From a virus (taxonomy: Duplodnaviria > Caudoviricetes), in IMG/VR virus record IMGVR_UViG_3300032295_001534, positions 1 through 25,488 of that record: a DNA stretch of 25,488 bases; one strand, 5' to 3'. Under the pieces are notes generated by a model. The model did no database searches and had not been told where the DNA came from. It saw only the letters and a list, made by a program, of their open reading frames with translations. The position numbers and the translations under genes are program-made. Shown here in pieces: positions 2 to 19,429 of this stretch (position 1 is the stretch's first letter; each line of letters begins with the position of its first letter).

Positions 2-139
2 GTTATTATTTTCGGACTATTAACGGGTTTAATTATGTTTGGAATAGTGGGAATGTGGAGAGAAATTGATACAACAAATCCCTTTAAATGGAATGAATAT
101 CAAATTAGTGAAACAACCTTTAAACAACAAGAACAATGA
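2..139 (+). CDS. 3' end of small membrane protein (partial), ends TFKQQEQ
   Basis: Open frame from window edge: VIIFGLLTGLIMFGIVGMW...ETTFKQQEQ*; the TGA overlaps the next ATG (ATGA). Confidence 0.7.
   Translation, partial: VIIFGLLTGLIMFGIVGMWREIDTTNPFKWNEYQISETTFKQQEQ
115..138 (+). repeat. Junction repeat copy 1 (AACCTTTAAACAACAAGAACAATG, perfect)
   Basis: Identical to 318-341 and 13348-13371; ends in the ATG of ORF 136. Confidence 0.95.
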
Positions 140-342
140 AAACAGCAGTAGAATGGTTGTATGAGCAGATGCCTAAAAAAATACAGCCACATTACAAGAA
201 ACAACTTGAGCAAGCCAAAGTAATGGAAGAACAACAAAAAGTAGAGTTTGCTCTTAGAGCTTACGGAGAGAAACTTTCAACAGGCAAAGGCCTTGTTGAG
301 ATTGTAAATAGTATGAGAACCTTTAAACAACAAGAACAATGA
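136..342 (+). CDS. TAVEWL-family small protein
   Basis: MKTAVEWL...QAKVME...TFKQQEQ; paralogs at 6370, 9277, 9647. Confidence 0.85.
   Translation: MKTAVEWLYEQMPKKIQPHYKKQLEQAKVMEEQQKVEFALRAYGEKLSTGKGLVEIVNSMRTFKQQEQ
318..341 (+). repeat. Junction repeat copy 2 (perfect)
   Basis: aacctttaaacaacaagaacaatg; ATG at 339. Confidence 0.95.
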
Positions 343-497
343 CAATATTTATATTAATTATATATAGCATTGCTACATTTAGAACTATCGTTCCATTAGG
401 CAACAAAGAAGAATTTACATTAGCGAACATAATATTTGCTAGCGCTCATATTGTAGCATTATGGTACTTGTTTGATTTACTAGTCACATTAAAATAA
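339..497 (+). CDS. Small membrane protein, 52 aa (not in ORF track)
   Basis: MTIFILIIYSIATFRT...IVALWYLFDLLVTLK*; two hydrophobic stretches; starts at the repeat ATG and fills the gap. Confidence 0.75.
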   Translation: MTIFILIIYSIATFRTIVPLGNKEEFTLANIIFASAHIVALWYLFDLLVTLK

Positions 498-503
498 AAT
501 AAC

Positions 504-1157
504 ATGAGAAAGAACAGCAATTTTGAACACAACAACATATGCACAAGAGGAAGTGTAATGTTAAAATACTTCATTGAAGAAATGCAAGAAAAGGGATGGG
601 CAGGGAAATGCTGTATAACAGGAGATGATACACATTTGTTTTACTGCATAGATGAAAAAGGATATCTTAGATGCGGTGTTAGTACTGGCAATAATCACAT
701 TGTAAAAGATTCAGAATTCATTGAGTACTATAGAGATATGCTAGCGCCTATTGAGTCAGAAGAAAAAGGAGAAATCTATGCAGTGACGCGTACTCAATTT
801 AAGAAGATACATGACGTGGCATGTGATAAATGGAAAAAGACCCTTACCGACTGGTGTAATGAGCAGACATTTGGCGAGGTATTAAAATTTTCACGCAATG
901 TAGTTGAGTCTATGCTTGCTGCCTCAGGACCTTCACAGAAACAAGTTATCCTATCTGTATTTGATACATACGAAGAAGATAAAAAATTAGATCTTTCAAG
1001 TATGTCATTCAAGGGCGATGTGTTTGATATTTATGGTACTGATGCGCTTATTGCAATAAATACTGATACCAATAACTCTTCCATTCTTAATGATGAATAC
1101 ACTTGGGAGATCACCAATGAAGGAGGCCGTCAAATATTAACACCAACAAGAAAATGA
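504..1157 (+). CDS. Hypothetical phage protein
   Basis: 217-aa ORF with A-rich start context. Confidence 0.8.
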   Translation: MRKNSNFEHNNICTRGSVMLKYFIEEMQEKGWAGKCCITGDDTHLFYCIDEKGYLRCGVSTGNNHIVKDSEFIEYYRDMLAPIESEEKGEIYAVTRTQFKKIHDVACDKWKKTLTDWCNEQTFGEVLKFSRNVVESMLAASGPSQKQVILSVFDTYEEDKKLDLSSMSFKGDVFDIYGTDALIAINTDTNNSSILNDEYTWEITNEGGRQILTPTRK

Positions 1158-1348
1158 AACAAAATCAAGCAAGAATACCAAGTGTAGGAATACTTTACCT
1201 GTACACAATGATTATTGTCACTATCATATTTGCTATGACAAGCTGTGCAAACACAAAGAAGTACTACAATTGTGATGCTTACAAAACTCATTACAAACCA
1301 ATCAAGGCAGAGAAGCACCGTCACGCTCTTTGCGATGCTTACAACTAA
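1154..1348 (+). CDS. Small putative lipoprotein
   Basis: Hydrophobic signal ending AMTS-C; CDAY occurs twice; ATGA overlap. Confidence 0.65.
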   Translation: MKQNQARIPSVGILYLYTMIIVTIIFAMTSCANTKKYYNCDAYKTHYKPIKAEKHRHALCDAYN

Positions 1349-1350
1349 CA

Positions 1351-1629
1351 ATGATAAAGAATCATAAAGAATTATTAGATGAAATAAGTAAGAATCCACA
1401 CCATGTATCATTCATAATGTCTGCAATAATCGACAAAGTGAATTGGACAGAAAGTAATCGCAGGCACATACTTAAGAACGATGAAGAATTTAAAATAAAT
1501 GGTGATATACCTGATTTTATTAGCGGAAGTAATTGGGTCCTTGCTAGTGATGAAATTAAAATTATTGTAAACAAGTTTTTAAATCCATTTAGTTATGAAC
1601 ATAGAAGCACTAAAAGAAAACATACCTAA
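1351..1629 (+). CDS. Hypothetical protein
   Basis: Track ORF 1330..1629; ATG at 1351 after the previous stop is the better start. Confidence 0.7.
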   Translation: MIKNHKELLDEISKNPHHVSFIMSAIIDKVNWTESNRRHILKNDEEFKINGDIPDFISGSNWVLASDEIKIIVNKFLNPFSYEHRSTKRKHT

Positions 1630-1873
1630 GCAACATAGGAAAAAAATAATTGCCCTAGCGATGTACTACACTAGGTATTGGAGTATAAATCCTGAAGATG
1701 TAGTCTTAGCTATGCTTAGCAACAGAGTGGATTGGCATCATAAAGTTCACAACGGTTTAACATCGGAGGGAGAAATGGATTCACGTATCACCAGATTTTT
1801 AACGGGAAACAGTACAGAAGTGCCAAGACGTTTCAGGTGGAGTGATTCTTACTTTGAAAATTTACAGCCATGA
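1595..1873 (+). CDS. Hypothetical protein (MNIE family)
   Basis: N-terminus resembles the next ORF (MNIE...YY...DSR). Confidence 0.75.
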   Translation: MNIEALKENIPKQHRKKIIALAMYYTRYWSINPEDVVLAMLSNRVDWHHKVHNGLTSEGEMDSRITRFLTGNSTEVPRRFRWSDSYFENLQP

Positions 1874-2208
1874 ACATAGAGCAATTTAAAAAGTTTAAAA
1901 AGAAGAAAGAGTTTGTTGCTTTTGTTCTTTACTATTCTAATAACCGTACTTATGAGAATTCATTGATGTACATCTTTTATAAATCTGATGACTTAGAATG
2001 GACAGGTAGAAGAGCATATAATAACGTACATTCATTTAATGACTCTGACAGCAGGGTGAGAGCTTTTATACGCTCATCAGGAACAGATCAAGCACTATTA
2101 AATGATTTAACTCCTTGGCCTAGCTCTAGACTATATGGTTTAAGCAAGCAAGAGAATAGTAGCCGAGGTTTTTTGAGACTATTTAATGATCTAGATTTAC
2201 CATTTTAA
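1870..2208 (+). CDS. Hypothetical protein with SSB-like acidic C-terminal tail (DLDLPF)
   Basis: 112 aa, ATGA overlap, ends NDLDLPF. Confidence 0.75.
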   Translation: MNIEQFKKFKKKKEFVAFVLYYSNNRTYENSLMYIFYKSDDLEWTGRRAYNNVHSFNDSDSRVRAFIRSSGTDQALLNDLTPWPSSRLYGLSKQENSSRGFLRLFNDLDLPF

Positions 2209-2259
2209 GGGATAGCCGAACCCCTTCAATAGTAGGCACAATTAAATTTTATAACTACC

Positions 2260-3735
2260 ATGATTAATAGAAATCTTTTACCTTTAGACTTTGTAATTAA
2301 AAGAGACGAAGAACACGAACTATGGCCTGAGTTTTTAACATGGCTAAACGAAGCATTCGAAGGAGTACTACCCAAAGTTAAATTCGAGGGCGAAGTAGAT
2401 GGGTATTATGGCCTCATTGAGGATTGCCCAATCATTATGCCAGAGCCTGACACTGCAGACGTACTCACGTTAGAAGAATGGATGTCTGTAATTAACGGAC
2501 AAGACATTGATTTTATCGAGACATACAATTGCGAATCTCATCCAATTACTAGATGTGTAATCATTAGTGATTCCGCTCCGCATGGCGGTAAGTATGCCTT
2601 AATCAGAGAGTGCGTTAGTATCAACTATCCTGATTGTATAGGCTACGCACTTAAGAGTGACTGCCAACAGTTATTAGATGGCAGATGGATGCTAGAGAGT
2701 CATGCTGATGAAGATGACAATATCGTGTTCTCTGACGAGCATGGTAGATTAATGGATTCAACTTCAGAGACCGCTGTTTTCACAGAGGATGAGGAGTGGA
2801 TAGATACCAGTTATCACAACGACTATATTCGTATTGAATCAAATGGAGTTTACTTTTCATCTAGTAGTGCGGCTGAAGATCATGGCTACTACTACAGTGA
2901 AAGAAAAGATTGTTGGATGCATGAAGATGATCAACCTGAATGCGTAGAGGATTGCAATGCTGGTTATCATCACCTATCTAGAAAAATTAGATTCAATGAC
3001 TCCGCAGAGTTCACCATTGGATTCGAGATTGAGAAAGAAGATGATGATGCAGGTATGATTCACTATCAAAAATTGTACAACGAAACAGGTTGGTGCAAAG
3101 AAAATGACAGCAGCCTTAACGATGATGGCTATGAATTAGTCAGCCCTGCCTTCAATCTTCAAACAGATGATTTAGACAGAGAAATCAACGCAAGCGCAGA
3201 CCTTCAGGCTCTAATCAATGCTGACTTCTCAAATAGTTGTGGTGGCCACATCAATGTTGGTTCTCCTAAGTATTCGACAGAGCAGTTATTCGAGGGCTTA
3301 TCAGGCTTCTTTCCGCTTCTGTATGCGCTTTATGATGGTCGATTGGACCGTGACTATTGCAAGGCCAAGAAAAAGCACAGATACTACGAAAAAGACAAGT
3401 ACTCATCAGTGTACATTCGTGACAAAGTTGTTGAGTTCAGAATCTTCAGTGCGGTATCTAGTGTCAACAACTTACTATGGAGACGTGACTTAATTCGCAT
3501 CATGTGTGAAAACTTCAACAAGTCTGAGGTTGATGTGCTTCGTATGATGGTAGATAGTCGCAGCAAGCTGTATAAACATCTTCGCAAGGTTTATAATCAA
3601 GACAAGTTGATTGACAAAATCGAAAGCTTCGTATTGTATTGTGACCAATTCAACAACAAGAAGCTACCAAAAGTTGATGTTAGCAAAATCAAAGCTGACA
3701 ACTTAGAAGAAGCATCTAGCTCTTTAGCAATCTAA
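2260..3735 (+). CDS. Putative amidoligase (COOH-NH2 ligase, Amidoligase_2-like)
   Basis: Motifs IGFEIE, DSSL..GYELVSP, SCGGHIN, KYSSV, VEFRIF; adjacent to a class II GATase. Confidence 0.8.
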   Translation: MINRNLLPLDFVIKRDEEHELWPEFLTWLNEAFEGVLPKVKFEGEVDGYYGLIEDCPIIMPEPDTADVLTLEEWMSVINGQDIDFIETYNCESHPITRCVIISDSAPHGGKYALIRECVSINYPDCIGYALKSDCQQLLDGRWMLESHADEDDNIVFSDEHGRLMDSTSETAVFTEDEEWIDTSYHNDYIRIESNGVYFSSSSAAEDHGYYYSERKDCWMHEDDQPECVEDCNAGYHHLSRKIRFNDSAEFTIGFEIEKEDDDAGMIHYQKLYNETGWCKENDSSLNDDGYELVSPAFNLQTDDLDREINASADLQALINADFSNSCGGHINVGSPKYSTEQLFEGLSGFFPLLYALYDGRLDRDYCKAKKKHRYYEKDKYSSVYIRDKVVEFRIFSAVSSVNNLLWRRDLIRIMCENFNKSEVDVLRMMVDSRSKLYKHLRKVYNQDKLIDKIESFVLYCDQFNNKKLPKVDVSKIKADNLEEASSSLAI

Positions 3736-3766
3736 TTAATAATCAAACAAACTAAAAAATAAAAAA

Positions 3767-4657
3767 ATGTGTATAGCAATTCTTAATACAAAAGGTACAA
3801 CACTTAAGAAAGATACCCTAAATAATTGTTGGGTAAACAATGGCGATGGCGCAGGTATCTTATATATTGACGACAACAAAAAGCTAGGGGTGTTCAAAGA
3901 AATGAATAGCTTTGAGAACTTCTACAAAAATTACATCGAAATCAAGCAGAAGTATGGTAAGCGCAACATTGTATTGCACTTCCGTATATCTACTCATGGC
4001 CGTGTAAATGAGACAAACTGCCACCCATTCATTACTAATGACGACATTGGCTTTGTTCACAACGGTATGATTTACGATGTTCCTGAATCTCTTGAGTACT
4101 CAGACACTTATATGTTCAATGAGTCTATCCTTAAGAATCTTAAGCCTGGCTTCGAGTATAACGAGACTATCCTAGGTATGCTTGAGGCGTTTATCGGATC
4201 AGGTAGTAAGCTTATATTCCTCAATAAGGAAAATGAATTCTTTATCGTTAATGAGCGAGCAGGACACTGGAATCTAGGATGTTGGTTCTCTAATACATCT
4301 TATCAACAAGTCAATAATTGGTATGACTTCGGAGGTACTCGCAAGTACAAAAGCACACCTAGTACAGGTTACACTTGGGGTGCTAACTCCAATTGGGGCG
4401 CCAAGGATAAAACCTATTCATCAAGCGTCTTCAATGAGGAAGAAGAGGGAGAGTTCGCTACAAATATGTGCACTGATTGCGGATGGATGCTAGTCACTGA
4501 AGCTGAGATGAAAAATGGAGTATGTGAGTTTTGTGAACACGAAAACCATGCCCAAGATGACTTGTGTGGATTATGTCAAGAAAACGAAGCAACTGAGTTA
4601 ATCACTGAATTCAACGCTTCTGTATGTAAGACCTGTAAAACTAGTCTAGGAGCATAA
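3767..4657 (+). CDS. Class II (Ntn) glutamine amidotransferase with C-terminal Cys-rich domain
   Basis: N-terminal M-C, NGDGAG, HFRISTHG, NCHPF, HNG, SDT; four CxxC pairs at the C-terminus. Confidence 0.88.
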   Translation: MCIAILNTKGTTLKKDTLNNCWVNNGDGAGILYIDDNKKLGVFKEMNSFENFYKNYIEIKQKYGKRNIVLHFRISTHGRVNETNCHPFITNDDIGFVHNGMIYDVPESLEYSDTYMFNESILKNLKPGFEYNETILGMLEAFIGSGSKLIFLNKENEFFIVNERAGHWNLGCWFSNTSYQQVNNWYDFGGTRKYKSTPSTGYTWGANSNWGAKDKTYSSSVFNEEEEGEFATNMCTDCGWMLVTEAEMKNGVCEFCEHENHAQDDLCGLCQENEATELITEFNASVCKTCKTSLGA

Positions 4658-4673
4658 TCACTATCAATAACAC

Positions 4674-4702
4674 GGGGGTTCTAGCGAATCCCCTTTATCT
4701 TT
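4674..4702 (+). terminator. Intrinsic terminator
   Basis: GGGGGTTC-TAGC-GAATCCCC 8-bp stem followed by TTTATCTTT. Confidence 0.65.
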
Positions 4703-4708
4703 AAAATT

Positions 4709-4942
4709 ATGATGAGTATAGAAGACTTTAAGCGGATTCCGGTAAACGATAGAATAATGGTCATCGCTAATTGCTTACATAGACATAGGGAAGATGGCGC
4801 TCTTTTAAGAAGGGTAGCTACATCGTTTTCTGCTGCTGATTTCTTAAACAAATCATCGGTTTGGGATGAAACGCCTCAAGGTCATGATTATTGGGATTCA
4901 TTACACAGAAAACTTTACAGAATTGATGAACTATGGGCATAA
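4709..4942 (+). CDS. Small protein, tandem paralog family (FK.IP..DR...IAN; W..TPQG..YW)
   Basis: Motifs shared with 4933, 5157, 5378 and partly 8035. Confidence 0.8.
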   Translation: MMSIEDFKRIPVNDRIMVIANCLHRHREDGALLRRVATSFSAADFLNKSSVWDETPQGHDYWDSLHRKLYRIDELWA

Positions 4943-5163
4943 AGGAATTTAAAAGAATACCTGCTGAGGATAGGGTGTACATTATTTCTGAGTTTATTAA
5001 GCAACACAATGAGTACACAATGGCAAGAGTATTTAAAGAAGAAGTTACCGCATATACATTTGTTGACTCGGTGTCATGGGGTCATTGCCACAAAGACCCA
5101 AATCACATGGTAGATATTTATAATAAAATAGCTCCATTTCATTTAAAAAGAAGGCAATGGTAA
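4933..5163 (+). CDS. Small protein, tandem paralog family
   Basis: MGIKEFKRIPAEDRVYII. Confidence 0.8.
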   Translation: MGIKEFKRIPAEDRVYIISEFIKQHNEYTMARVFKEEVTAYTFVDSVSWGHCHKDPNHMVDIYNKIAPFHLKRRQW

Positions 5164-5357
5164 AAGAAATAAAAGAACTTCCTCCTAAGGTTAGAGTGGA
5201 AATGATTGCTAATCTAATGAAGGATAGGGGTCAAGAATTGGGTCTTTTGGATTTAAATTACCTTATTAAGGGTAGATGTTTAGGTGCAATGTTTGGCTTT
5301 AGCGGGTCACCTCAAGGATCTAAATACTGGAGACATCATGCTGACCGGTGGCGTTGA
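5157..5357 (+). CDS. Small protein, tandem paralog family
   Basis: IKELPPKVRVEMIANL...FSGSPQGSKYW. Confidence 0.8.
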   Translation: MVKEIKELPPKVRVEMIANLMKDRGQELGLLDLNYLIKGRCLGAMFGFSGSPQGSKYWRHHADRWR

Positions 5358-5377
5358 AACAAATAATAATTACAATC

Positions 5378-5611
5378 ATGACAATATTACAATTTAAGAA
5401 TCTAAATCCTGACGAAAGAATAAAGTTCATAGCTAATTTAATTGATTATAGGGGTGATGATAATATGATTACATGCTGGAAAAGATCTAATGATATAATG
5501 CGATTCATTGATCAACCTTCTTGGATATCTCTTCATTCGGGAAGAGCTTTTATGGTTCCTATTTGGAATAGGCTTTGTGAAAGTTATGACCACGAAACAA
5601 GACAAGTTTAA
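5378..5611 (+). CDS. Small protein, tandem paralog family
   Basis: ATG at 5378 gives MTILQFKNLNPDERIKFIANL, which aligns with the paralog N-termini. Confidence 0.75.
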   Translation: MTILQFKNLNPDERIKFIANLIDYRGDDNMITCWKRSNDIMRFIDQPSWISLHSGRAFMVPIWNRLCESYDHETRQV

Positions 5612-5620
5612 ATTAACATT

Positions 5621-5887
5621 ATGACTTACGAAGAATTTATTAACAACTTCAAGCCTATAACAAACAACATAACTAACAATGCGCCTTATGGTGGGTATAT
5701 GTTTGAAACATTTGGTGCAGAGCTTGACTTTGTAAAGCAACACAAAAACAAAAACATATGGACAATCATGGATGATGACTCTATACTTGCGGGATACCAC
5801 ATTGTAAATAGAATGGGGTATATCATTTGCGAGGTAGACAATCATGATATGGACATGGAAATAACTGATTTTGATGAGGAGATTTGA
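5621..5887 (+). CDS. Hypothetical phage protein
   Basis: 88-aa ORF with A-rich start. Confidence 0.8.
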   Translation: MTYEEFINNFKPITNNITNNAPYGGYMFETFGAELDFVKQHKNKNIWTIMDDDSILAGYHIVNRMGYIICEVDNHDMDMEITDFDEEI

Positions 5888-6065
5888 GAATATACTTTAC
5901 TTATTTGCAGGGATTGCGATAGGTATGCTATTGGCTACAACGATGTATGAAAAAGAAATAGAAAAGATATACAGCATTGTAGAGATACCAAAGGTTGGCG
6001 ATATGAGTGACTGCGCTAACGAAAGAGAGATAGGTTATTACGAACACTTAATGCGCACAAAATAA
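5871..6065 (+). CDS. Small membrane-anchored protein
   Basis: N-terminal hydrophobic helix ILYLFAGIAIGMLLA. Confidence 0.7.
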   Translation: MMRRFENILYLFAGIAIGMLLATTMYEKEIEKIYSIVEIPKVGDMSDCANEREIGYYEHLMRTK

Positions 6066-6087
6066 CCTTTAAACCACAATAACAATG
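6064..6087 (+). repeat. Junction repeat copy 3 (AACCTTTAAACCACAATAACAATG)
   Basis: 22/24 match; ATG at 6085. Confidence 0.9.
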
Positions 6088-6351
6088 AAAGAGAACATAG
6101 GATTTATAGATGATGAATTTGATTTAGAATCACTTAGAAATGTACCAACAGCAGAAGAGTTTTTAACTGAAAAAGGTTATCCTGGATTTGCTAAACATAC
6201 TCTCATAAAGGAGTGGATGAAAGAATTTGCTAAACTTCATGTAGAAGCAGCATTAAAAGCAGCAAGTGAATCTGAAAGTGACGGTACATTTGGTAGAATG
6301 ATTTACCCTAATTCAATCTTAACTTGTTATCCAATTGAAAACATTGATTAA
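6085..6351 (+). CDS. Hypothetical small protein (PTAEEFL...EFAKLHVEAALKAASE)
   Basis: Bounded by junction repeats. Confidence 0.85.
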   Translation: MKENIGFIDDEFDLESLRNVPTAEEFLTEKGYPGFAKHTLIKEWMKEFAKLHVEAALKAASESESDGTFGRMIYPNSILTCYPIENID

Positions 6352-6372
6352 ACCTAAACAACAATAACAATG
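6351..6372 (+). repeat. Junction repeat copy 4 (AACCTAAACAACAATAACAATG)
   Basis: 2-nt deletion plus 1 mismatch; ATG at 6370. Confidence 0.85.
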
Positions 6373-6600
6373 GAAACAGCAGTAGAATGGTTAATTGACG
6401 AGTTATTTAATTATGATAATGGCGCTAGTGAGTATTTTAGCAAAGTTGCAATTTATAACCACGCAAAAAGAATAGAGAAGGAGCAACATCAAGAAACTTG
6501 GAATGTAGCACATCAAGCAGGTAGATTTGAGGGTAAAGGTATTGCAGAAGAAAATTGGCAAACATTTCAAGCACATTGGGAGGATAACTTTAAACAATAA
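6370..6600 (+). CDS. TAVEWL-family small protein
   Basis: METAVEWL...HAKRIEKEQ...NFKQ*. Confidence 0.85.
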   Translation: METAVEWLIDELFNYDNGASEYFSKVAIYNHAKRIEKEQHQETWNVAHQAGRFEGKGIAEENWQTFQAHWEDNFKQ

Positions 6601-6608
6601 GAATAATG
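6586..6608 (+). repeat. Junction repeat copy 5 (AACTTTAAACAATAAGAATAATG)
   Basis: 1-nt deletion plus two C>T changes; ATG at 6606. Confidence 0.85.
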
Positions 6609-6869
6609 AAATCACTAAAATTATTATATTACAGATTTAAAGTCATTAAACGATCACAAGCATTAGAACTTGGTTTGGAGTTCAGTAATAACGTACATGG
6701 GGACGCAATAAATCATTTGAATTGCAGAAGTATTTGGGTGGATTCTAAAGGTAGAACTTATAGAGTTCATGAATTAGAAAAGACTAAACATCACGAACTA
6801 TGCAAGTGTGGTTGGCGAAAAATTGGTGGATATAGTTGCCAAAGAACTGATTGTAATCAAAACATCTAA
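6606..6869 (+). CDS. Hypothetical small protein with Cys-rich C-terminus
   Basis: Bounded by junction repeats; CKCG...CQRTDC. Confidence 0.75.
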   Translation: MKSLKLLYYRFKVIKRSQALELGLEFSNNVHGDAINHLNCRSIWVDSKGRTYRVHELEKTKHHELCKCGWRKIGGYSCQRTDCNQNI

Positions 6870-6887
6870 ACAACAAGAAGAACAATG
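6861..6887 (+). repeat. Junction repeat copy 6 (AACATCTAAACAACAAGAAGAACAATG)
   Basis: Core TAAACAACAAGAA..CAATG with an extra GAA; ATG at 6885. Confidence 0.8.
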
Positions 6888-7115
6888 AGTAAAGAATTCG
6901 AATACCTAGTTGGCAAGAAGATATCAGGAGTAAGGTATATGACTGATCAAGAGGCTAATGACTTTGGCTTCTATAAGAAACCATTAGTAATTGTATTTGA
7001 GGGTGGAGACTTTATGCTTCCAGTAGCAGACGATGAATGCAATGATGGTGGTGCAGCACTATTCTTTGAGCGGCAAAGAAACGGATATAAGGAAACATTA
7101 ATCTATACTACATGA
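6885..7115 (+). CDS. Hypothetical phage protein
   Basis: LVGKKI..VRYMT..EA...DDECNDGGA. Confidence 0.85.
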   Translation: MSKEFEYLVGKKISGVRYMTDQEANDFGFYKKPLVIVFEGGDFMLPVADDECNDGGAALFFERQRNGYKETLIYTT

Positions 7116-7282
7116 GTACATATCACATATTCTACACACGTAAAAACCAACTGCCTAGTGGCGTAAATATCTCTGCAATAAATGAGGTAGATGCAATAAC
7201 TAAGTTTACTTCTGAGCATCAGTACGATGAGATAGTATACATAGCTAAACAAGAAACACTATGGTCTCTTCGAAAGAATTAG
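7112..7282 (+). CDS. Hypothetical 56-aa protein (not in ORF track)
   Basis: ATGA overlap; MSTYHIFYTRK...WSLRKN*. Confidence 0.65.
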   Translation: MSTYHIFYTRKNQLPSGVNISAINEVDAITKFTSEHQYDEIVYIAKQETLWSLRKN

Positions 7283-7302
7283 TAACACCTAAATCAAATA
7301 AT

Positions 7303-7746
7303 ATGAACACAAGAGTTTTTAAAACAAATGAAAAGTATTTAAACTTCCTAACTGATGTGTATTCATCTGCATCTAATGATGGAAAGTTTAAAATGCGAGC
7401 TATTCTTAGTAAGTATAAGATGAGTGGCAGGGTATCATCTATCATAATGGATCGTGGTATCATTAAGAAATATAAGTCTGCTGAGACAGGAATAATGTAT
7501 AGATGGAATACTCGCCAGCCAGATATAAGAATTGCCAACGCAGTAAGAAAAGCCCTTAACGAGGAGACATACAGCAATAAACTAAGGCTAGATGCAGAGA
7601 GAAACAATAAGACAGTTGCTGTTAAGAAAACAGAAGTTAAGAGTAAGAAAGTAGAGGTTAATAGAAGAAGGCCCACTCCTAAGAAAGAGGTTGTAACCAA
7701 TAAGGAGTTCAGCTTCATGTGGGGATTAATCAAAATCAAGTACTAA
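7303..7746 (+). CDS. Basic hypothetical protein
   Basis: Track ORF 7261..7746; ATG at 7303 has the better context; Lys-rich. Confidence 0.75.
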   Translation: MNTRVFKTNEKYLNFLTDVYSSASNDGKFKMRAILSKYKMSGRVSSIIMDRGIIKKYKSAETGIMYRWNTRQPDIRIANAVRKALNEETYSNKLRLDAERNNKTVAVKKTEVKSKKVEVNRRRPTPKKEVVTNKEFSFMWGLIKIKY

Positions 7747-7910
7747 TGGTAACAACTGAAGAGATTGTAGATATAGCTAACTATCTACACATGGATATTG
7801 ATGATCAAATAATTGAAGAAACTAAAAGATTGTATTACGAATCATCTTTAACTGATGGATTGAATAAACATGAGGTTATAGAAGGCATATTGTACTACTT
7901 AGTTTCATGA
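7746..7910 (+). CDS. Hypothetical small protein
   Basis: TAATG overlap at 7744-7748. Confidence 0.7.
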   Translation: MVTTEEIVDIANYLHMDIDDQIIEETKRLYYESSLTDGLNKHEVIEGILYYLVS

Positions 7911-8026
7911 GTAGGAGAATAATAAAAACATCAATTGCAATACTTGTAAACTCACTCTTATTAGTAGTATACATATCTTCTATTGTGTCTTTTATATATA
8001 GAGTTATTACTAGAAATAATCATTAA
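7907..8026 (+). CDS. 39-aa membrane peptide (not in ORF track)
   Basis: ATGA overlap; MSRRIIKTSIAILVNSLLLVVYISSIVSFIYRV... Confidence 0.55.
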   Translation: MSRRIIKTSIAILVNSLLLVVYISSIVSFIYRVITRNNH

Positions 8027-8034
8027 ATTAGAAC

Positions 8035-8421
8035 ATGAAGATAATAGATTTACTACTTGAAAGGTTGCCCAATAATTATGTAGAACTAATAATAAACAAC
8101 ATGGATGATTTCAATGTGGCATACAAAGAAGAAGGTACGCTTGCTTCTGTAGAACTCATGACGTTGTTTGATTGGAATGAGTCTCGTGAGGGCTATGACT
8201 TCTGGAATAGAGTTTACTTATACTTAGTCGGTGAATCAGAACTGCCACAACTGCCAATAGAAATTAAATATAAACCATCATCTGTTCTTATGATGAGGGA
8301 TGGTATGTACGTTATGAATACTGGAGGATCAGGACTAAATATAAAGTATGATGTGATTATGCATGAACTTAAGAACTCAAATGCCAAGGCACGAGAGCAG
8401 GTTCTTCTATGGCTTAATTAA
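8035..8421 (+). CDS. Hypothetical protein with FDW..S.EG.DFW motif
   Basis: Motif related to 4709/5157 (W..TPQG..YW). Confidence 0.8.
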   Translation: MKIIDLLLERLPNNYVELIINNMDDFNVAYKEEGTLASVELMTLFDWNESREGYDFWNRVYLYLVGESELPQLPIEIKYKPSSVLMMRDGMYVMNTGGSGLNIKYDVIMHELKNSNAKAREQVLLWLN

Positions 8422-8461
8422 AATTTTTCACTATCAAATTTTTTTATTCAAAAATGTTTTA

Positions 8462-8469
8462 TACATTTG
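8462..8469 (+). promoter_or_regulatory. Bacteroidota-type -7 promoter element (TACATTTG)
   Basis: Matches TAnnTTTG at the start of a 450-bp intergenic region; no clear -33 TTTG. Confidence 0.6.
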
Positions 8470-8532
8470 TAGTGTCGAACTCCACTTTCGATATCTAGTT
8501 TTAGCATTATATCATGGTAGATATATATAAGA

Positions 8533-8568
8533 CCCTAGTCGAAGTGGAGAAGCGGCTAGGGTTTTTTT
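8533..8568 (+). terminator. Intrinsic terminator within putative attenuator leader
   Basis: CCCTAGTCG / CGGCTAGGG stem followed by T7. Confidence 0.8.
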
Positions 8569-8570
8569 AT

Positions 8571-8860
8571 GCCCTATTACATACGGGTGTTGTATACCAT
8601 TGAACATCTTTACCAAAAACAATGTCTCACAATGAACGCTTGTTCGATAAATAAAATCTCGCTCTGTCTGAACGCTTGACAACGAGTACTGCATACTGAA
8701 AGGTAAAAGAACAAGTGAGCCAAATAACCTAAGTCGAAAGACTGAATTAATAAGAAGAGGTCGCAGAGGGAAGTGTCATTGGTGGGAGTATCTCTATTCA
8801 AGTAAGAGATTTAAGTGCTGTGTGGTATATGCAGTATAAAAGCGAAGCTATAACTAATAA
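8571..8860 (+). ncRNA. Candidate structured non-coding RNA
   Basis: No credible ORF; several 6-9 bp long-range complements and an AGTC-GAAA-GACT tetraloop hairpin. Confidence 0.35.
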
Positions 8861-8868
8861 GTAAAACA

Positions 8869-9108
8869 ATGGATATAAAACTAGAAAGATTAAGTCCTGA
8901 AGACATAGCATTCAACTTATCCTTTATGTTCTACAAGGATGAAGATGTTACAGGAGTTAAAGCGTATGAGTTCGCTACAAAAAGCCTACACGCAATAATA
9001 GAAGCATTCCATAGACAAGGACTTGAACCACCTGAAGAGTACAGAGAAGCAGGAGTTATATTGTTTATGAGATTGTCAGAAGAAATAGAAAAAGATGGGG
9101 TTCATTAA
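8869..9108 (+). CDS. Hypothetical protein
   Basis: 79-aa ORF. Confidence 0.75.
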   Translation: MDIKLERLSPEDIAFNLSFMFYKDEDVTGVKAYEFATKSLHAIIEAFHRQGLEPPEEYREAGVILFMRLSEEIEKDGVH

Positions 9109-9280
9109 GTATACAATATCTTGGATCAGTCAGAATCTAGCTATTCCATTCTGGTCTATCGGACATATACACCTTATGACTACAGTCTATGAAGACATAT
9201 ACGAGGTGTTAATGTCATTTGGCATGAATGTAATAGTTGCGATAGGATTTATTATTGACTATAAAAAATCATTAGAATGA
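9095..9280 (+). CDS. Small membrane protein
   Basis: Hydrophobic; WISQNLAIPFW..GHIHL. Confidence 0.75.
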   Translation: MGFIKYTISWISQNLAIPFWSIGHIHLMTTVYEDIYEVLMSFGMNVIVAIGFIIDYKKSLE

Positions 9281-9498
9281 AAACAGCAGTAGAATGGTTG
9301 GAGAGTGAGATTTTGGAACATTACTCACCTTTTGACAATAAACTTTTATACGAGGCTATACATAAAGCTAAGGAAATGGAGAAGAATCGGATTATTGAGG
9401 CACACTTTAATGGCTGTGAAACAGGTGAAATGTTTAATAATGAAAATAGAGCATTTATAACTGACTCAGAAGAATATTATAACAGAACATTTAAATAA
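9277..9498 (+). CDS. TAVEWL-family small protein
   Basis: MKTAVEWL...KAKEMEK...EEYYNRTFK*. Confidence 0.85.
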   Translation: MKTAVEWLESEILEHYSPFDNKLLYEAIHKAKEMEKNRIIEAHFNGCETGEMFNNENRAFITDSEEYYNRTFK

Positions 9499-9509
9499 CA
9501 AGAACAATG
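9486..9509 (+). repeat. Junction repeat copy 7 (AACATTTAAATAACAAGAACAATG)
   Basis: 22/24 match; ATG at 9507. Confidence 0.9.
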
Positions 9510-9650
9510 AAGTTAGAATTTAGAACACAGTTTAAGAAAAGTAAAGAGGGCAATATACACTTTAGTTTTTTATCAGTCAGTTTTGGGAGCAATGCTTTCT
9601 TAATTGCAATCTTAGGACTAGTATTTATCTTTAAACAACAAGAACAATGA
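9507..9650 (+). CDS. 47-aa protein ending IFKQQEQ (not in ORF track)
   Basis: Runs exactly from repeat ATG to next repeat TGA: MKLEFRTQFKKSKEG...LVFIFKQQEQ*. Confidence 0.75.
   Translation: MKLEFRTQFKKSKEGNIHFSFLSVSFGSNAFLIAILGLVFIFKQQEQ
9627..9649 (+). repeat. Junction repeat copy 8 (ATCTTTAAACAACAAGAACAATG)
   Basis: Last 21 nt identical to consensus; ATG at 9647. Confidence 0.9.
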
Positions 9651-9907
9651 AAGAAGAAACACAATTAACAGCAGTAGAATGGTTGGTTGATGCCCTTAAT
9701 AAAGAAATGGGATTAATATCTTTTGTTCCAAATGCAGATGAAGAATATAAGAAGGAATTATTTAATATTATTCAACAAGCAAAAGAAATGGAGAATTCTC
9801 AAGCGACAGAATACGCAAAATGGTCTCTTGGTATCTATGAACTTCACGCTCGGTTTTTTACATTTTTAGAATGGATTAAAGATGAGCCTAAAGATGACGA
9901 ACAATGA
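9647..9907 (+). CDS. TAVEWL-family small protein
   Basis: QLTAVEWL...QQAKEME...PKDDEQ*. Confidence 0.85.
   Translation: MKEETQLTAVEWLVDALNKEMGLISFVPNADEEYKKELFNIIQQAKEMENSQATEYAKWSLGIYELHARFFTFLEWIKDEPKDDEQ
9885..9906 (+). repeat. Junction repeat copy 9, degenerate (AGCCTAAAGATGACGAACAATG)
   Basis: Keeps CCTAAA and GAACAATG with the consensus spacing; ATGA overlap. Confidence 0.5.
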
Positions 9908-10074
9908 AAACAGAAAAACCAACACAGAAACAATTAGACTATATTAAGTCTATTGAGGAAAATACAGGAATTATTTTTACAGGAATAACTAAAGAAGAAG
10001 CCTCAAAGTATATTTCCGCAAATAAGAACCACCCAGGAAATCAGAATGAGTGGGCACTTGTTAATGGATATTAA
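9904..10074 (+). CDS. 56-aa protein, DUF3072-like (not in ORF track)
   Basis: PTQKQLDYI...ITKEEASKYI pattern. Confidence 0.65.
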   Translation: MKTEKPTQKQLDYIKSIEENTGIIFTGITKEEASKYISANKNHPGNQNEWALVNGY

Positions 10075-10092
10075 TTAACAACAAGAACAATG
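10075..10092 (+). repeat. Junction repeat copy 10, 3' part (TTAACAACAAGAACAATG)
   Basis: 16-nt core identical; its ATG (10090) is out of frame with ORF 10095. Confidence 0.8.
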
Positions 10093-10094
10093 AT

Positions 10095-10313
10095 ATGGAA
10101 TACGCTTATACACCAAAAGAAAAAGCAAAAGAGTTAATAGATAAGTATTATACTCAACTACCAGACTTTGCGGGTTATCATGATTTAGAAACAGCCAGAC
10201 AATGTGCATTAATTGCAGTTGATTTGTTAATGAAAGAGGCTTATCGTCAAAATGATTACGAAGGATTTATGGCACATTGGAAAGAGGTTAAACAAGAAAT
10301 AGAAAAGCAATGA
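10095..10313 (+). CDS. TPKEKA-family small protein
   Basis: TPKEKA...ARQCALIAVD...WKEVKQEIEK. Confidence 0.85.
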   Translation: MEYAYTPKEKAKELIDKYYTQLPDFAGYHDLETARQCALIAVDLLMKEAYRQNDYEGFMAHWKEVKQEIEKQ

Positions 10314-10528
10314 CACCAAAAGAAAAAGCAATACAGTTGGTAGGTGAATTTATAGACCAAGTTTCATGGGGTAGACTTGAACACAAATATCAATGTGATG
10401 AAAATGCTAAACAATGCGTATTGATTTTAGTTGACGAGACATTAGAGGCGTTAAGTGAAAATCAGTGGCAGAATCGTAATCAAATTGCTTACTATAAAGA
10501 AGTTGAATTAGAAATTAAAAAGTTATGA
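10310..10528 (+). CDS. TPKEKA-family small protein (tandem paralog)
   Basis: MTPKEKA...AKQCVLILVD...YKEVELEIKKL. Confidence 0.85.
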   Translation: MTPKEKAIQLVGEFIDQVSWGRLEHKYQCDENAKQCVLILVDETLEALSENQWQNRNQIAYYKEVELEIKKL

Positions 10529-10875
10529 ATGATTGGAGTAGCGCCTGGGAAAGAGCAATGAAAGAAAGGCTTAAGGAACGCACAGAAAAGCTGCACGTTA
10601 GCACTAGTCATGGAAAGATTAGTGATGGATTTCTTAAACACATTGAAGAGATGGGAACAGCTGAGAAGCCAATCAAGATAGAGACAATCAAAGATCCTGT
10701 CATTGAAATGCTTAAGCAAAAGTTTGATGAACGCAGTCAAGTAGGTATCAATAAATACGGTACGACACTAGCTGAAAACAATGATGATGACTTCCTTATG
10801 CATCTATTAGAGGAGCTTATGGATGCCTCAGCTTACATAATGAAAATCATCTCAAAAAGGAATAATTCTAAATAA
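10525..10875 (+). CDS. Hypothetical phage protein (helical MazG-like motif)
   Basis: RSQVGINKYGTTL...HLLEELMDASAY. Confidence 0.7.
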   Translation: MNDWSSAWERAMKERLKERTEKLHVSTSHGKISDGFLKHIEEMGTAEKPIKIETIKDPVIEMLKQKFDERSQVGINKYGTTLAENNDDDFLMHLLEELMDASAYIMKIISKRNNSK

Positions 10876-10879
10876 ATTA

Positions 10880-10910
10880 TTTGCAATTCAAACTTTAATT
10901 GCTATATTTG
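10880..10910 (+). promoter_or_regulatory. Bacteroidota primary-sigma promoter
   Basis: TTTG (10880-83), 19-nt spacer, TATATTTG (10903-10): exact -33/-7 consensus upstream of the recombination/replication operon. Confidence 0.85.
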
Positions 10911-10928
10911 TAGCAAATCAAATAACTT

Positions 10929-11213
10929 ATGAACAAGAAGACAGGTATTCGAGACCTAATGAAATCGAAGCGATATGGCGCAATCCATCTCAAAGAAGCT
11001 CTAATTGAACGTAATGTTCCTGGCAATTGGGAGGCCTATCAAAATGTTTACAACCTAATGTCCGGAAGAACTCCTCGCGATTCTTATGCCTTCATTGTAA
11101 TTGCAGATATGCTTGGTGAAGACTTAAGGGATATCCTGATGAGATATTCTACCGTACAGAATGAAGTAATGAATTATACAAACAAAGAATTAGAACAAGA
11201 TTTTAACTGGTAA
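10929..11213 (+). CDS. Putative XRE-type HTH regulator
   Basis: YQNVYNLMSGRTP...IADMLG..L.DI pattern; first gene after the promoter. Confidence 0.55.
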   Translation: MNKKTGIRDLMKSKRYGAIHLKEALIERNVPGNWEAYQNVYNLMSGRTPRDSYAFIVIADMLGEDLRDILMRYSTVQNEVMNYTNKELEQDFNW

Positions 11214-11215
11214 TT

Positions 11216-11431
11216 ATGAGCAAAGAACAATTAGTACACCTATTAATGCAGACCGATGGCGATAGCTTTAAATTTGAACTTCAAGGGAAAAGAAGTGATG
11301 TAATTTCAGCATTTCTATATGCAATGAATGATGAGCCTGCATTCGCTGACTTATTAAAAGCTTGTGTATCATTCCATGAATCAAAGGAGTATCAAGAAGC
11401 ATTCTTAAATAAAGTAAAAGGAGACGCATAA
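11216..11431 (+). CDS. Hypothetical protein
   Basis: 71-aa ORF in operon. Confidence 0.75.
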   Translation: MSKEQLVHLLMQTDGDSFKFELQGKRSDVISAFLYAMNDEPAFADLLKACVSFHESKEYQEAFLNKVKGDA

Positions 11432-11432
11432 T

Positions 11433-12422
11433 ATGAATTTAAACGAACTAACAAGACCACTAGATATTAGTGACATCGACTTTCGAGTACAGTCAATTAA
11501 TAATGGTGGCTATGCTACGATTCTAGCATACAAAGATGCACGTGTAGATATGGCACGATTAGATGCTGCCGTTGGTCCATTAGGTTGGCAGCGTAAGCAC
11601 GAGTTTATTAACGGTAAGTTATTCTGCCACGTAGGCTTATGGAATGGCGCTGGTGATTGGGTATGGAAATCTGACGTAGGTACTGAGTCAATGACTGAAG
11701 CCACCAAAGGTGAATCTTCTGACTCATTCAAGCGTGCTTGCTTCAATTGGGGTATTGGCCGTGAGTTGTATGACTATCCTTTAATCTCTGTCAAGCTTAA
11801 TGACAATGAATGGTCAAAGGATGGTGGTAGACCTAAGCAAACGTACAACCTTAAGATTCGTGATTGGACATGGTACTCTGAGTTCACTGATGGTCGTGTA
11901 TCATTCCTTGCTGCTAAAGATGAGAATGGTAAGCTACGATTCAAGTGGGGCGAGATGAAACCTAAGCAAGCTGAACCTGAGTTCAAGCCTGCATCAGCAC
12001 CTGCTGAAGTACAAGATGATTTACAGCCTGATGTACAACCTGCTCCAGTGCAAGTACCTGATGAAGCTAACGTGAAAGGTATACTTAAGCCACAAGCTGA
12101 TGAATCTGATCCTGAGCGTGATGCATTAGTTGCTGAGTACAATCAGTTGTATGGCAAGAATCCTGATAAGCGCATGAAGAATGAGACAATCAAGAAAGCT
12201 ATCCAAGATAAGGTAGATGAGATTCTTGATGAGGGATTGACTGAAGAAGAAGTTGAAGAGGAAAACATCTCTGATTACTTTGATAAGGTTAAATCAATTA
12301 CTGATCCTAAGCAGTTCATTCAATGGGCTAAGGATACTGTAGCTAAGTTCCCTGATGCGCCACAAGATCACGTGGATATGTTCAAAGAACTATGTAATGC
12401 TCACTACAAATCTATTATGTAA
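11433..12422 (+). CDS. Rad52/22-like single-strand annealing protein (Sak family)
   Basis: LAYKDAR...RLD..VGP.GW, WVWKSDVG.ES, KGE.SD.FKRA...WGIGR.LY; Pro/acidic linker and C-terminal extension. Confidence 0.88.
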   Translation: MNLNELTRPLDISDIDFRVQSINNGGYATILAYKDARVDMARLDAAVGPLGWQRKHEFINGKLFCHVGLWNGAGDWVWKSDVGTESMTEATKGESSDSFKRACFNWGIGRELYDYPLISVKLNDNEWSKDGGRPKQTYNLKIRDWTWYSEFTDGRVSFLAAKDENGKLRFKWGEMKPKQAEPEFKPASAPAEVQDDLQPDVQPAPVQVPDEANVKGILKPQADESDPERDALVAEYNQLYGKNPDKRMKNETIKKAIQDKVDEILDEGLTEEEVEEENISDYFDKVKSITDPKQFIQWAKDTVAKFPDAPQDHVDMFKELCNAHYKSIM

Positions 12423-12775
12423 TGGAGTTTACAATTGAACAAGAACGCCTAGCGTATACTTTGAAGAGACGAATGCTTAAAATGGTTGAGGATTGCTCAA
12501 CTACTGAGTGCAGGTCTTCATTAAGTATTATGCGTCAAGATGTTATTAACATACTTGAGTTGCTAGGATCTAAAGACATGAGTTATTTTGATTTATTTGT
12601 AAATATAGAAGAAGAAAAAATGGGAGAACAAACATTTGAAGAAGCAGTAAAGCCATTAATGAAATGGTTATGTGAGAACAAGCATCCGCACACAACAGCA
12701 ATTGTAACTGGCAACCTTGCAGAGTTAGTTGAAGGTGTTGAAAGCGTGAAGACAGATGAATTTATTGTAGACTAA
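12422..12775 (+). CDS. Hypothetical protein
   Basis: C-terminal FEEAVKPLMKWL.EN.HPH domain; possible internal start at 12620. Confidence 0.7.
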   Translation: MEFTIEQERLAYTLKRRMLKMVEDCSTTECRSSLSIMRQDVINILELLGSKDMSYFDLFVNIEEEKMGEQTFEEAVKPLMKWLCENKHPHTTAIVTGNLAELVEGVESVKTDEFIVD

Positions 12776-12786
12776 ACAATAATATT

Positions 12787-13269
12787 ATGATTGATATCTT
12801 TAAAGAAGATAGCAATGGAATGGTTATAGCCTTGGATAATTTGTCTAAGGCTAACCTTTCTAATATAGCTAACGAAATCGTAAAGACCTCTGTTGATGGA
12901 GGATACGAAGACCCAATTGAAGCTTACGTTAAAGCTAAGGGTATTGCAGAAATTGCTGATCAAATCATGAGCGGACTTAAGCACTATGCTATCAAGGATG
13001 CGTATAAGTTTGATAAAGATCAGAAAGTATTAGGTTGCTCGGTTGTTGTTAAGAACACACCTACTACCTACGACTACTCCCATAACGATGAATGGTCTGA
13101 GATAAATGACCAAATCGCATTACTTAAGGAACGTCAGAAAGAAATCGAGAAGCAGATGATTCAGGCTATGTCAGTTGCCCAGTTGATTGATAACGATGGC
13201 GTAGTAGTTGAGCCTGCTGTGATTAAGAAAGAAGGATCAGAGACAATACAAATTACAATACCAAGATAA
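12787..13269 (+). CDS. Hypothetical phage protein
   Basis: 160 aa, coiled-coil segment, codon usage like the core genes. Confidence 0.8.
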   Translation: MIDIFKEDSNGMVIALDNLSKANLSNIANEIVKTSVDGGYEDPIEAYVKAKGIAEIADQIMSGLKHYAIKDAYKFDKDQKVLGCSVVVKNTPTTYDYSHNDEWSEINDQIALLKERQKEIEKQMIQAMSVAQLIDNDGVVVEPAVIKKEGSETIQITIPR

Positions 13270-13349
13270 TGGAAATAGGAACATCAGTTGCTATATTAAT
13301 CATATGTGTAACATTGTTAATAGCACACGAAATCAGAAATCATAAATAA
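13269..13349 (+). CDS. 26-aa hydrophobic peptide (not in ORF track)
   Basis: TAATG overlap; MEIGTSVAILIICVTLLIAHEIRNHK*; stop overlaps the repeat. Confidence 0.5.
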   Translation: MEIGTSVAILIICVTLLIAHEIRNHK

Positions 13350-13371
13350 CCTTTAAACAACAAGAACAATG
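13348..13371 (+). repeat. Junction repeat copy 11 (perfect)
   Basis: aacctttaaacaacaagaacaatg; ATG at 13369. Confidence 0.95.
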
Positions 13372-13590
13372 AAAGGATTTAAAGTAGGTTGCTCACCTAT
13401 AACGAGTGATATTTACGCAGGAAATGTTAATGACAAAGGTATGTGGGTTGGAAAAAAACACAATGTAACCGATACAGCAGTTGGGGCAGTTGCTCAACAT
13501 TTACTACAATTAAACGAAGAGATGAAATTTGGCTACAAGGGTAAGGAATATGTACTTCAAGTAGTAGAACTAAAACAACAAGAACAATGA
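13369..13590 (+). CDS. Hypothetical small protein ending LKQQEQ
   Basis: Bounded by repeats; SPITSDIYAG...K.NVTD.AV.AVAQHL. Confidence 0.85.
   Translation: MKGFKVGCSPITSDIYAGNVNDKGMWVGKKHNVTDTAVGAVAQHLLQLNEEMKFGYKGKEYVLQVVELKQQEQ
13568..13589 (+). repeat. Junction repeat copy 12 (AACTAAAACAACAAGAACAATG)
   Basis: 17-nt 3' core identical; ATG at 13587. Confidence 0.9.
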
Positions 13591-13820
13591 AATCAGAAGA
13601 ATTTGTAAACAAACAAAAAGAAAAGTACGGTAACTTTGGAATAGTCTATCCACCATCAACCGATAAAGAAGCTTTTTCGGCCTTAACAGAACATTTCTTA
13701 GGAAAGGATTGGTATACTGCTAACCCTGTTAATTCAGAACAAGTTAATACAGAAATTGTAGCTCTTATATTTGATAAGACTCAACCAAAGAAATGGTATC
13801 AAAGATTATTTAACCTTTAA
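13587..13820 (+). CDS. Hypothetical small protein
   Basis: Bounded by repeats; YPP...FLGKDWY..NP...EQVNTE. Confidence 0.85.
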   Translation: MKSEEFVNKQKEKYGNFGIVYPPSTDKEAFSALTEHFLGKDWYTANPVNSEQVNTEIVALIFDKTQPKKWYQRLFNL

Positions 13821-13835
13821 ACAACAAGACTAATG
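13812..13835 (+). repeat. Junction repeat copy 13 (AACCTTTAAACAACAAGACTAATG)
   Basis: 22/24 match; ATG at 13833. Confidence 0.92.
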
Positions 13836-13958
13836 AAACTAAACAGAGATCAACGCATGGAAGAAGCGGGTGCTTATGGCACTATGTTTATCATTAGCGT
13901 AATCGTTATTGCGATAATTATAGCGACTATAACAACAATATTTAATCTATGGAATTAA
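13833..13958 (+). CDS. 41-aa membrane peptide (not in ORF track)
   Basis: MKLNRDQRMEEAGAYGTMFIISVIVIAIIIATITTIFNLWN*. Confidence 0.65.
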   Translation: MKLNRDQRMEEAGAYGTMFIISVIVIAIIIATITTIFNLWN

Positions 13959-14128
13959 ATCAAGGAATAAGAGATAACATGATTAATGAAATCAAAGAAT
14001 TGAATGATGACATTAATAAAATAAACAAAGAGATAAAGAGTCTTCAAGCCAAAAGAGACAGAAGAAAAAATAAAATAAAAGCTCTTGTATTAATCCTAAG
14101 TAACCAACTAGAACTAGATTTAGATTAA
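13949..14128 (+). CDS. 59-aa coiled-coil protein ending QLELDLD (not in ORF track)
   Basis: MELNQGIRDNMINEIKELNDDINKINKEIKSLQAKRDRRKNKIKALVLILSNQLELDLD*; fills the gap exactly. Confidence 0.7.
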   Translation: MELNQGIRDNMINEIKELNDDINKINKEIKSLQAKRDRRKNKIKALVLILSNQLELDLD

Positions 14129-14129
14129 A

Positions 14130-18985: not shown

Positions 18986-19083
18986 AGCTTGCCACTGACG
19001 AGTGGAACGTAACCTGCCGGTCTTAATTGCTCGCGGTTCTCATCGTAGGGAGATAGGTTAGCCTTCCGAGGAAAAAGGCACAT

Positions 19084-19209: not shown

Positions 19210-19256
19210 CAAAAGGTATAGGCGCACTAACTTCCTTATTTCTAATAGAACGCAAT

Positions 19257-19411: not shown

Positions 19412-19429
19412 CAAATTGATTCAACATAA

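Follow-up and report, generated by a model that had tools for sequence, protein, structure and literature searches.

In T4-type phages, the repeated promoter early stem-loop (PeSL) elements border small ORFans in variable regions and not core modules; genes are gained, lost and replaced at the element, no integrase is identified in the available parts of the reports, and the element supplies expression signals and ends at a start codon (PMC2839356, PMC4122927). Features of PeSL alone are a sigma-70 promoter, a stem-loop, a Shine-Dalgarno (SD) sequence and demonstrated mini-circles. In the boundary (linker) sequence model, homologous recombination at short conserved intergenic sequences produces mosaic joints, and according to the accessible text such sequences cannot be found at most mosaic boundaries (PMC3029335). 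The start-associated sequences (SAS) of cluster K mycobacteriophages are short asymmetric repeats, present in one orientation just 5' of the ATG of non-structural genes and rare in the host; an SD core is part of them, their distance to the start is 3-7 bp, they mostly follow gaps >50 bp and they remain with the same gene families, and no crossover-site role is stated for them in the available part of PMC3203893. Here we describe a junction repeat of 19 bp between small genes in IMG/VR virus record IMGVR_UViG_3300032295_001534; "the window" is the whole analysed stretch of 25,488 nucleotides, a 25.5-kb virus record with genes for GATase, a Sak/Rad52-like annealase, DnaB, SSB, endolysin and holin. 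The repeat is very probably an exchange site. It works like PeSL or boundary-sequence shuffling, yet it is neither a PeSL nor an integron.

The junction shares the first set of PeSL traits, from the flanking ORFans in variable regions and the gene-content breakpoints without an identified integrase to the probable supply of expression signals at a start codon, and it lacks the PeSL-type promoter and the stem-loop or terminator. Unlike PeSL, it is only 19 bp, has no hairpin and no SD, overlaps the upstream stop, is known here from assembled contigs, and is identical letter for letter among phages whose replication genes are unrelated. With the boundary model it has in common that mosaic joints lie at short conserved homology; unlike in that account of the model, two standard junctions cover hundreds of boundaries across lineages and carry start and stop codons. 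The short, asymmetric, one-orientation form just 5' of non-structural genes and the rarity in hosts are shared with SAS, while the SD-containing 13-mer 3-7 bp before the start is missing. Integron cassettes are defined by the IntI tyrosine recombinase and the attC imperfect hairpin. As in integrons, single small, mostly unknown ORFs (open reading frames) form arrays with a repeated site between them and are reassorted as units. A preliminary description of this DNA called the system integron-like, and the analogy holds for the array form; unlike in integrons, no IntI is found in the carriers, no attC-type hairpin is formed (top strand folded as RNA), and exchange also takes place at other shared boxes, so that several site types are used. 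A literature search for the motif and peptide strings found no paper, with most subscription journals and supplements beyond its reach.

In the whole window the repeat, taken as a 24-mer, has perfect copies at 115, 318 and 13348, exactly as first reported. With at most 3 mismatches there are 7 matches, compared with 0 in 100 shuffles. At the looser limit of 6/24 mismatches 12 copies are found on the + strand and 0 on the - strand, while 50 shuffles give a mean of 0.14 and a maximum of 1; the copies form four clusters, also in agreement with the preliminary description. The variant copies listed there do exist, but small indels shift some coordinates by 1-6 bases, and the copy at 9885 is weak (4/17 core mismatches). 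A very degenerate extra copy at 6779 (7 mismatches) divides the unit 6606-6885 into two fused units. Common to all junctions are 19 bp, from -15 to +3: TAAACAACAAGAACAATGA. The AACCTT to the left of this core goes along with the upstream gene and lies outside the exchange-relevant part. The features concerned are:

115, 318, 6064, 6349, 6585, 6861, 9486, 9626, 10069, 13348, 13566, 13812, + strand: the 12 repeat copies with at most 6/24 mismatches
115..139, + strand: perfect junction repeat; the upstream ORF ends in an ATGA overlap (…TFKQQEQ*)
136..342, + strand: cassette gene of the MKTAVEW family, 68 aa, from the ORF reading
318..342, + strand: perfect junction repeat, by exact match
339..497, + strand: small gene past the last cluster-1 repeat, 52 aa, an ORF with an 82% identical copy ahead of a repeat in L013
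6064..6888, + strand: cluster 2, with repeats at 6064, 6349, 6585, (6779) and 6861 and genes at 6085, 6370 (MKTAVEW family) and 6606
6785..6888, + strand: 81-82 bp unit fused to gene 6606, TGC instead of TGA, with 83-87% blastn matches to seven loci
9277..10528, + strand: cluster 3, with MKTAVEW gene 9277, repeats at 9486, 9626, (9885) and 10069 and genes at 9507, 9647, 9904, 10095 and 10310
11433..12422, + strand: Sak / Rad52-like single-strand annealing protein, PF04098 at 27.8 bits (cut-off 20.3), phrog_1097
13348..13836, + strand: cluster 4, with repeats at 13348, 13566 and 13812
13369..13590, + strand: cassette gene DUF7446, 73 aa, PF24233 (E 5e-19)
13587..13820, + strand: cassette gene of 77 aa with a match to Pfam Tad8, an inhibitor family for type II Thoeris; PF25189 at 58.2 bits (cut-off 27)

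As had been claimed, the ATG of the repeat starts the next ORF in 12 of 13 copies; the exception is the ATG at 10090, which opens a frame of 15 codons, the actual gene start being 10095. All nine unit lengths given earlier (203, 285, 236, 279, 140, 257, 186, 218 and 246 bp) follow from the ATG positions. The statement that each unit holds one small, mostly unrelated gene needs refinement, since 136, 6370 and 9647 are MKTAVEW paralogues (3/9 units) and 6606-6885 is two fused units. A hand-made list of 57 + strand starts was compared with the 17-nt core: the 12 array genes differ from it at no more than 2 positions, one start differs at 4 and the other 44 at 5 or more. The starts of annealase, DnaB, SSB and GATase are among these 44 (6-11 mismatches for core genes), so the absence of copies before core genes of the window stands.

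The gene order across the clusters is not kept in relatives: content changes at the repeat even in near-identical strains. In Logan contigs of strains 97-99% identical to the window, both flanks are kept and other DNA lies between the repeats. At cluster 2 one contig (X2 record 9) matches 2195-6063 and returns at 6891, with 222 other bases replacing 827. At cluster 4, X7 record 27 departs at 13374 and rejoins at 13809, while X6 record 8 and X8 record 14 depart at 13370-13375 and rejoin at 13818; the insert in X6 record 8 is ~1.9 kb long and has four inner motif copies. X4 record 20 departs at 9303, which is the end of the MKTAVEW head and not the motif. X1, a possible source sample, was left out of the independent evidence; zero cover of the cluster-4 cassettes in X3 and X5 was not counted, since no single contig bridges the site, and joints with a short side (under 30) were not counted in favour of circles.

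The same is seen in more distant records. L126 has 96% identity over the next 4.8 kb; its match to the window ends at 13269 and starts again at 13827, with nine motif copies and ten different genes in between. At the orthologous cluster-4 site there are 5 motif copies in L131, 6 in L133 and 4 in L134, one gene in L135 and no extra gene in L138; across L126-L138 differing inserts lie between shared flanks. The cluster-3 site is empty in L126 and L127 and contains one gene in L128 and L134.

Between otherwise dissimilar loci, BLAST matches of the window begin or end at the repeat (1-141, 6785-6888, 9899-10093). Positions 1-141 are 97-99% identical to L007, L008, L038, L039 and L116, with the identity ending at the 115 repeat, and the unit 9899-10093 is 94-95% identical in L007, L038 and L065. 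Window cassettes recur in other arrays, and the gain and loss breakpoints fall at the repeat both between relatives and between unrelated phages. In total, 519 unique junctions (sister motif, see below, included) give 511 distinct pairs from 380 upstream and 404 downstream families, and at least two partners are seen in 70/72 upstream and 62/64 downstream families. In a family control with matched gene calls, 26/27 and 29/29 families switch partner at the motif, against 37/151 and 49/157 at non-motif small-gene junctions; counted pairwise, switching is 71/72 and 66/68 at the motif and 94/293 and 115/352 at other small-gene junctions. The control was scored offset-tolerantly and by families, and the noisy large-gene controls were not used. 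Only four motif pairs come from closely related loci, and all four switched. A crossover map from 221 and 167 pairs places the exchange at -15..+3: bases to the left of -15 go with the upstream gene (0.66-0.93 shared vs 0.26-0.69), those to the right of +3 with the downstream gene.

The junction is in general a viral sequence. The exact 21-mer occurs in an estimated ~260 IMG/VR stretches (at least 125 among the matches listed, with 30/64 parts scanned), while in GTDB (596 Gb, 185,579 prokaryote genomes) it occurs in 2 stretches only and is thus not a generic start context. One is a 1.2-kb contig of a Flavobacteriia metagenome-assembled genome (MAG) with typical array context, the other a single copy in a Prevotellaceae MAG. 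In 99 non-redundant loci we counted 271 motif copies, none on the opposite strand. The carriers are unrelated phage lineages, among them 41-67 kb primase-polymerase phages, ~118-kb Sak4 phages and phages of 124-174 kb; the annealase of the window is found in only 6/24 records and a close DnaB in 5/24. A complete 174-kb record has 22 motif copies, clustered, and G003 and G004, relatives of the window, have 0.

ATGA is the reading in 117 of the 120 unique exact junctions. Termination of the upstream ORF falls at the TGA of ATGA in 73 cases, at the TAA within CTTTAA in 24 and immediately 5' of the repeat in 15. Two reading frames are closed by a stop within the junction, which also contains the ATG; a T at -22 adds a stop in the third, and stops in at least two frames are found at 288/298 junctions. 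One ORF fills 241/293 repeat-to-repeat units (median 208 bp); the remaining 52/293 are read-throughs, carry two genes or have very short frames. In sequence the motif resembles an (AAN)n run, and its sole palindrome is TTTAAA. In line with the earlier statement that it has neither stem-loop nor SD, no hairpin was found, as folds of 5/5 junctions (top strand as RNA) are no better than shuffles (z -0.1 to +1.7), and the motif is without AGGAG, the ATG itself lying inside it. Of 7 terminator-like sites in the window 0 are inside repeats, and sigma-70-like sites are not enriched (56 vs 59.7), with one weak 9/12 match overlapping the 9486 copy. A Bacteroidota promoter consensus has 1 match against 1.1 expected by chance; this match is not at a repeat, and the consensus gives no host evidence. 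Selection on the encoded peptide KQQEQ was considered and rejected: among 85 substitutions only 5 are synonymous third-position A>G changes, and first positions vary most.

A sister junction, type B, AACCTTTAAATCAGAATAAGATG (…TFKSE*), is found at the cluster-4 site of L129. It is estimated to occur in ~350 viral stretches and behaves like the junction of the window (type A). The two occur together in 18 loci, and 20/293 units have mixed ends; two discrete types are seen and no continuum. In some relatives the gene behind the last array copy is conserved or larger: examples are L131:12675, a DUF3127 gene at a type A junction, and ThyX and GATase past the sister junction. Both junctions can be read as the usual gene ends of one family: 106/166 genes of the MKTAVEW family carry junction-encoded tails, FKSE in 69 cases and QQEQ in 37. 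MKTAVEW mosaics also swap at a ~30-bp conserved internal box, the C-part differing in 20/24 pairs with a shared N-part. The family (~70 aa; 136, 6370, 9277 and 9647 in the window) has three conserved DNA boxes, one at ~9770-9795, and reassorted segments. It has no Pfam or PHROG match, tblastn of the 9277 protein against cultured phages gave no match, and an Atlas search returned viral clusters without a name only.

The adenines at -13, -12, -6 and -3, which the accessible text of PMC6847099 reports as positive initiation determinants for F. johnsoniae, are present in 11/12 motif starts and in 7/44 other window starts. Further, substitutions in near-copies spare the A sites (29/85 vs 52% expected from strain differences, p=0.001). 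From these base patterns the junction likely also serves as the translation start region of the incoming gene, which fits the Bacteroidota-type initiation context proposed before. The host of the phage is likely a member of the Bacteroidota, because of these A-rich SD-less starts and because in the Flavobacterium phage elemoA a relative of the commonest cassette (MKIEITHY) comes after an MNTAVEWL gene, with a B-like junction twice repeated.

Taken together, we consider it likely that the 19-bp junction, which marks differences of whole mini-genes among freshwater phages, related and unrelated ones, is a shared short homology for recombination combined with a start region. Recombination at this short homology would be carried out by phage annealases or host enzymes. 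Sak or Sak4 is found in 12/21 records (Sak4 in 8/21), with weak ATPase matches in three and nothing in six; Sak is present in the group of the window, and we infer that the window Sak is a candidate catalyst. Several unrelated boxes act as crossover sites, which favours short-homology recombination, and the swaps at the intragenic MKTAVEW box together with the mixed A/B units favour homology over one recognition site. The junction may descend from the 3' ends of the MKTAVEW genes and now be borrowed by unrelated genes; head-to-tail arrays of this abundant paralogue family would have given the first repeats. Foreign genes could each have joined once via microhomology at TAAA or ATGA, and cassettes would then have spread through replacement, insertion and deletion between copies. 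Each exchange would renew the junction, which would explain why it stays uniform, and selection for A-rich Bacteroidota-type initiation may decide which variants persist.

A number of observations weigh against short-homology exchange at the junction. At non-motif junctions these phages show a high background of switching, 25-33%, and in the comparison the loci were picked by motif, the pairs are non-independent and gene calling in the control is crude. At clusters 3 and 4 the left edge switches at a bare ATG junction. Within-locus duplicate units, which unequal crossover could produce, number 0/277. Minimal pairing lengths are quoted as 23-27 bp for Red-beta and 31-34 bp for RecA in the available text of PMC3945230. 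The 19-bp core is below these minima, which are reached only where copies have AACCTT or the MKTAVEW head in common as well. Finally, five carriers, which belong to the six with nothing and of which four are at least 90% complete, show no Sak, Sak4, Erf, RecT or RecA. As an observation on their lineage, these carriers (G015, G017-G020) are primase-polymerase phages of 52-67 kb with arrays.

The short core and the five carriers without known annealases would be easier to understand if a dedicated sequence-specific recombinase or nuclease, from the host or an unrecognised phage protein, acted on the 19-bp core and moved circular cassettes as in an integron. The two discrete junction types and the uniformity of the core across unrelated phages (241/303 near-copies exact, partly by ascertainment) would fit as well. 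We nevertheless regard this as rather unlikely. Tyrosine recombinase PF00589 is over the cut-off in 0/25 carrier records (control 14/14), resolvase PF00239 and reverse transcriptase RVT_1 in 0/24 each and the Y1 enzyme in 0/21, host genomes being outside the search; the claim that the carriers are integrase-free is thereby upheld for tyrosine and serine recombinases. Moreover the junction forms no hairpin, and swaps are also seen inside genes, at the unrelated box, and at degenerate copies, 9885 for example. The motif could instead be merely a strong initiation or coupling signal, or a regulator site, with illegitimate recombination bringing the genes and selection keeping those that land at a border. 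The F. johnsoniae adenine pattern, a conservation of A sites exceeding mutation bias and the frequent switching at non-motif junctions agree with this, but a general signal is hard to reconcile with the near absence of the motif from prokaryote genomes and from window core genes. Neither does it account for switching at ~96-100% of motif junctions against 25-31% elsewhere, nor for homology between dissimilar loci that begins and ends at the motif, and the known adenine rule leaves the exact C and G positions unexplained; we hold this explanation to be quite improbable.

Every exact-motif carrier is a metagenome assembly, so the reshuffling could in principle be an artefact in which unrelated reads were joined through the short repeat. 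This is very improbable: a second assembly of the likely source run (X1) gives 130-6567 and 8640-14500 with zero differences, and X3 and X5, from two studies, share an alternative cluster-4 arrangement at the same record positions with 409 letters between. In addition, the units are mostly intact single ORFs (241/293, as above), and arrays sit in records rated 94-100% complete by CheckV. A wider reading goes beyond short-homology exchange: a pool shared by freshwater Bacteroidota phages of many families and plausibly rich in counter-defence genes, two junction standards descending from a selfish MKTAVEW family, small circles moved by a dedicated enzyme outside known recombinase families, and special units that add C-terminal tails. 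We see this combination as an unlikely one.

Concerning the cargo, there are 324 downstream families; 71 MKTAVEW- or MTPKEKA-like ones were left out of the scan, and 7/253 of the others have Pfam matches. For Tad8 a block of the ThsA effector in type II Thoeris is predicted (PMC13728456), and the window cassette 13587-13820 is on the basis of its Pfam match a predicted anti-defence gene; a PDB search with this Tad8-like protein gave no match. The Tad8 unit is 91-92% identical in L335, L336 and L337 with other neighbours, and the matches end at the downstream repeat. It is bounded by good repeat copies in L335 and L337, while the upstream copy is degenerate in L336. In L335 it directly follows an 81% identical relative of the cluster-1 cassette, unit 136..342. 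In another type of mobile unit, 81-82 bp long and beginning ATGC, the upstream TGA would become Cys (L025:7088-7180, L079:319-400, L010:50-131 and window 6779-6888); the unit would append a Cys-rich C-terminal tail (C-x-C…C-x4-C) to the preceding protein. The family flanking it on the upstream side is combined with seven different downstream partners.

Large natural examples have so far been missing for the boundary-sequence model of phage mosaicism. With hundreds of junctions across unrelated phage lineages, the crossover interval is narrowed here to 19 bases, and the model therefore becomes directly testable. The junction is also a function-blind handle for harvesting accessory genes: since 246/253 cassette families are without a Pfam match and one cassette matches Tad8, the pool is a lead for new anti-defence proteins. 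The cultured Flavobacterium phage elemoA, with its related gene pair and similar junction, is a possible bench system.

Some further observations concern individual genes and regions. In L131 (G001) DnaB is split within an 804-aa frame, possibly by an intein, and in L134 (G006) the annealase gene is interrupted by ~1.1 kb, possibly an intron or homing element. In the window, the label amidoligase for 2260-3735 is unverified, as no Pfam or PHROG match was found, and 19080-19410 looks tRNA-like by eye, but ARAGORN finds no tRNA. Beside the arrays a second small family is abundant, which is represented in the window by two tandem MTPKEKA paralogues (phrog_21441) at 10095-10528. At 4709-5611 the similar heads (…EFKRIP…) of four short genes suggest another small paralogue array without the motif. 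The non-coding regions 18990-19090 and 19411-19514 are 83-93% identical in many motif-carrying loci, often just 5' of arrays.

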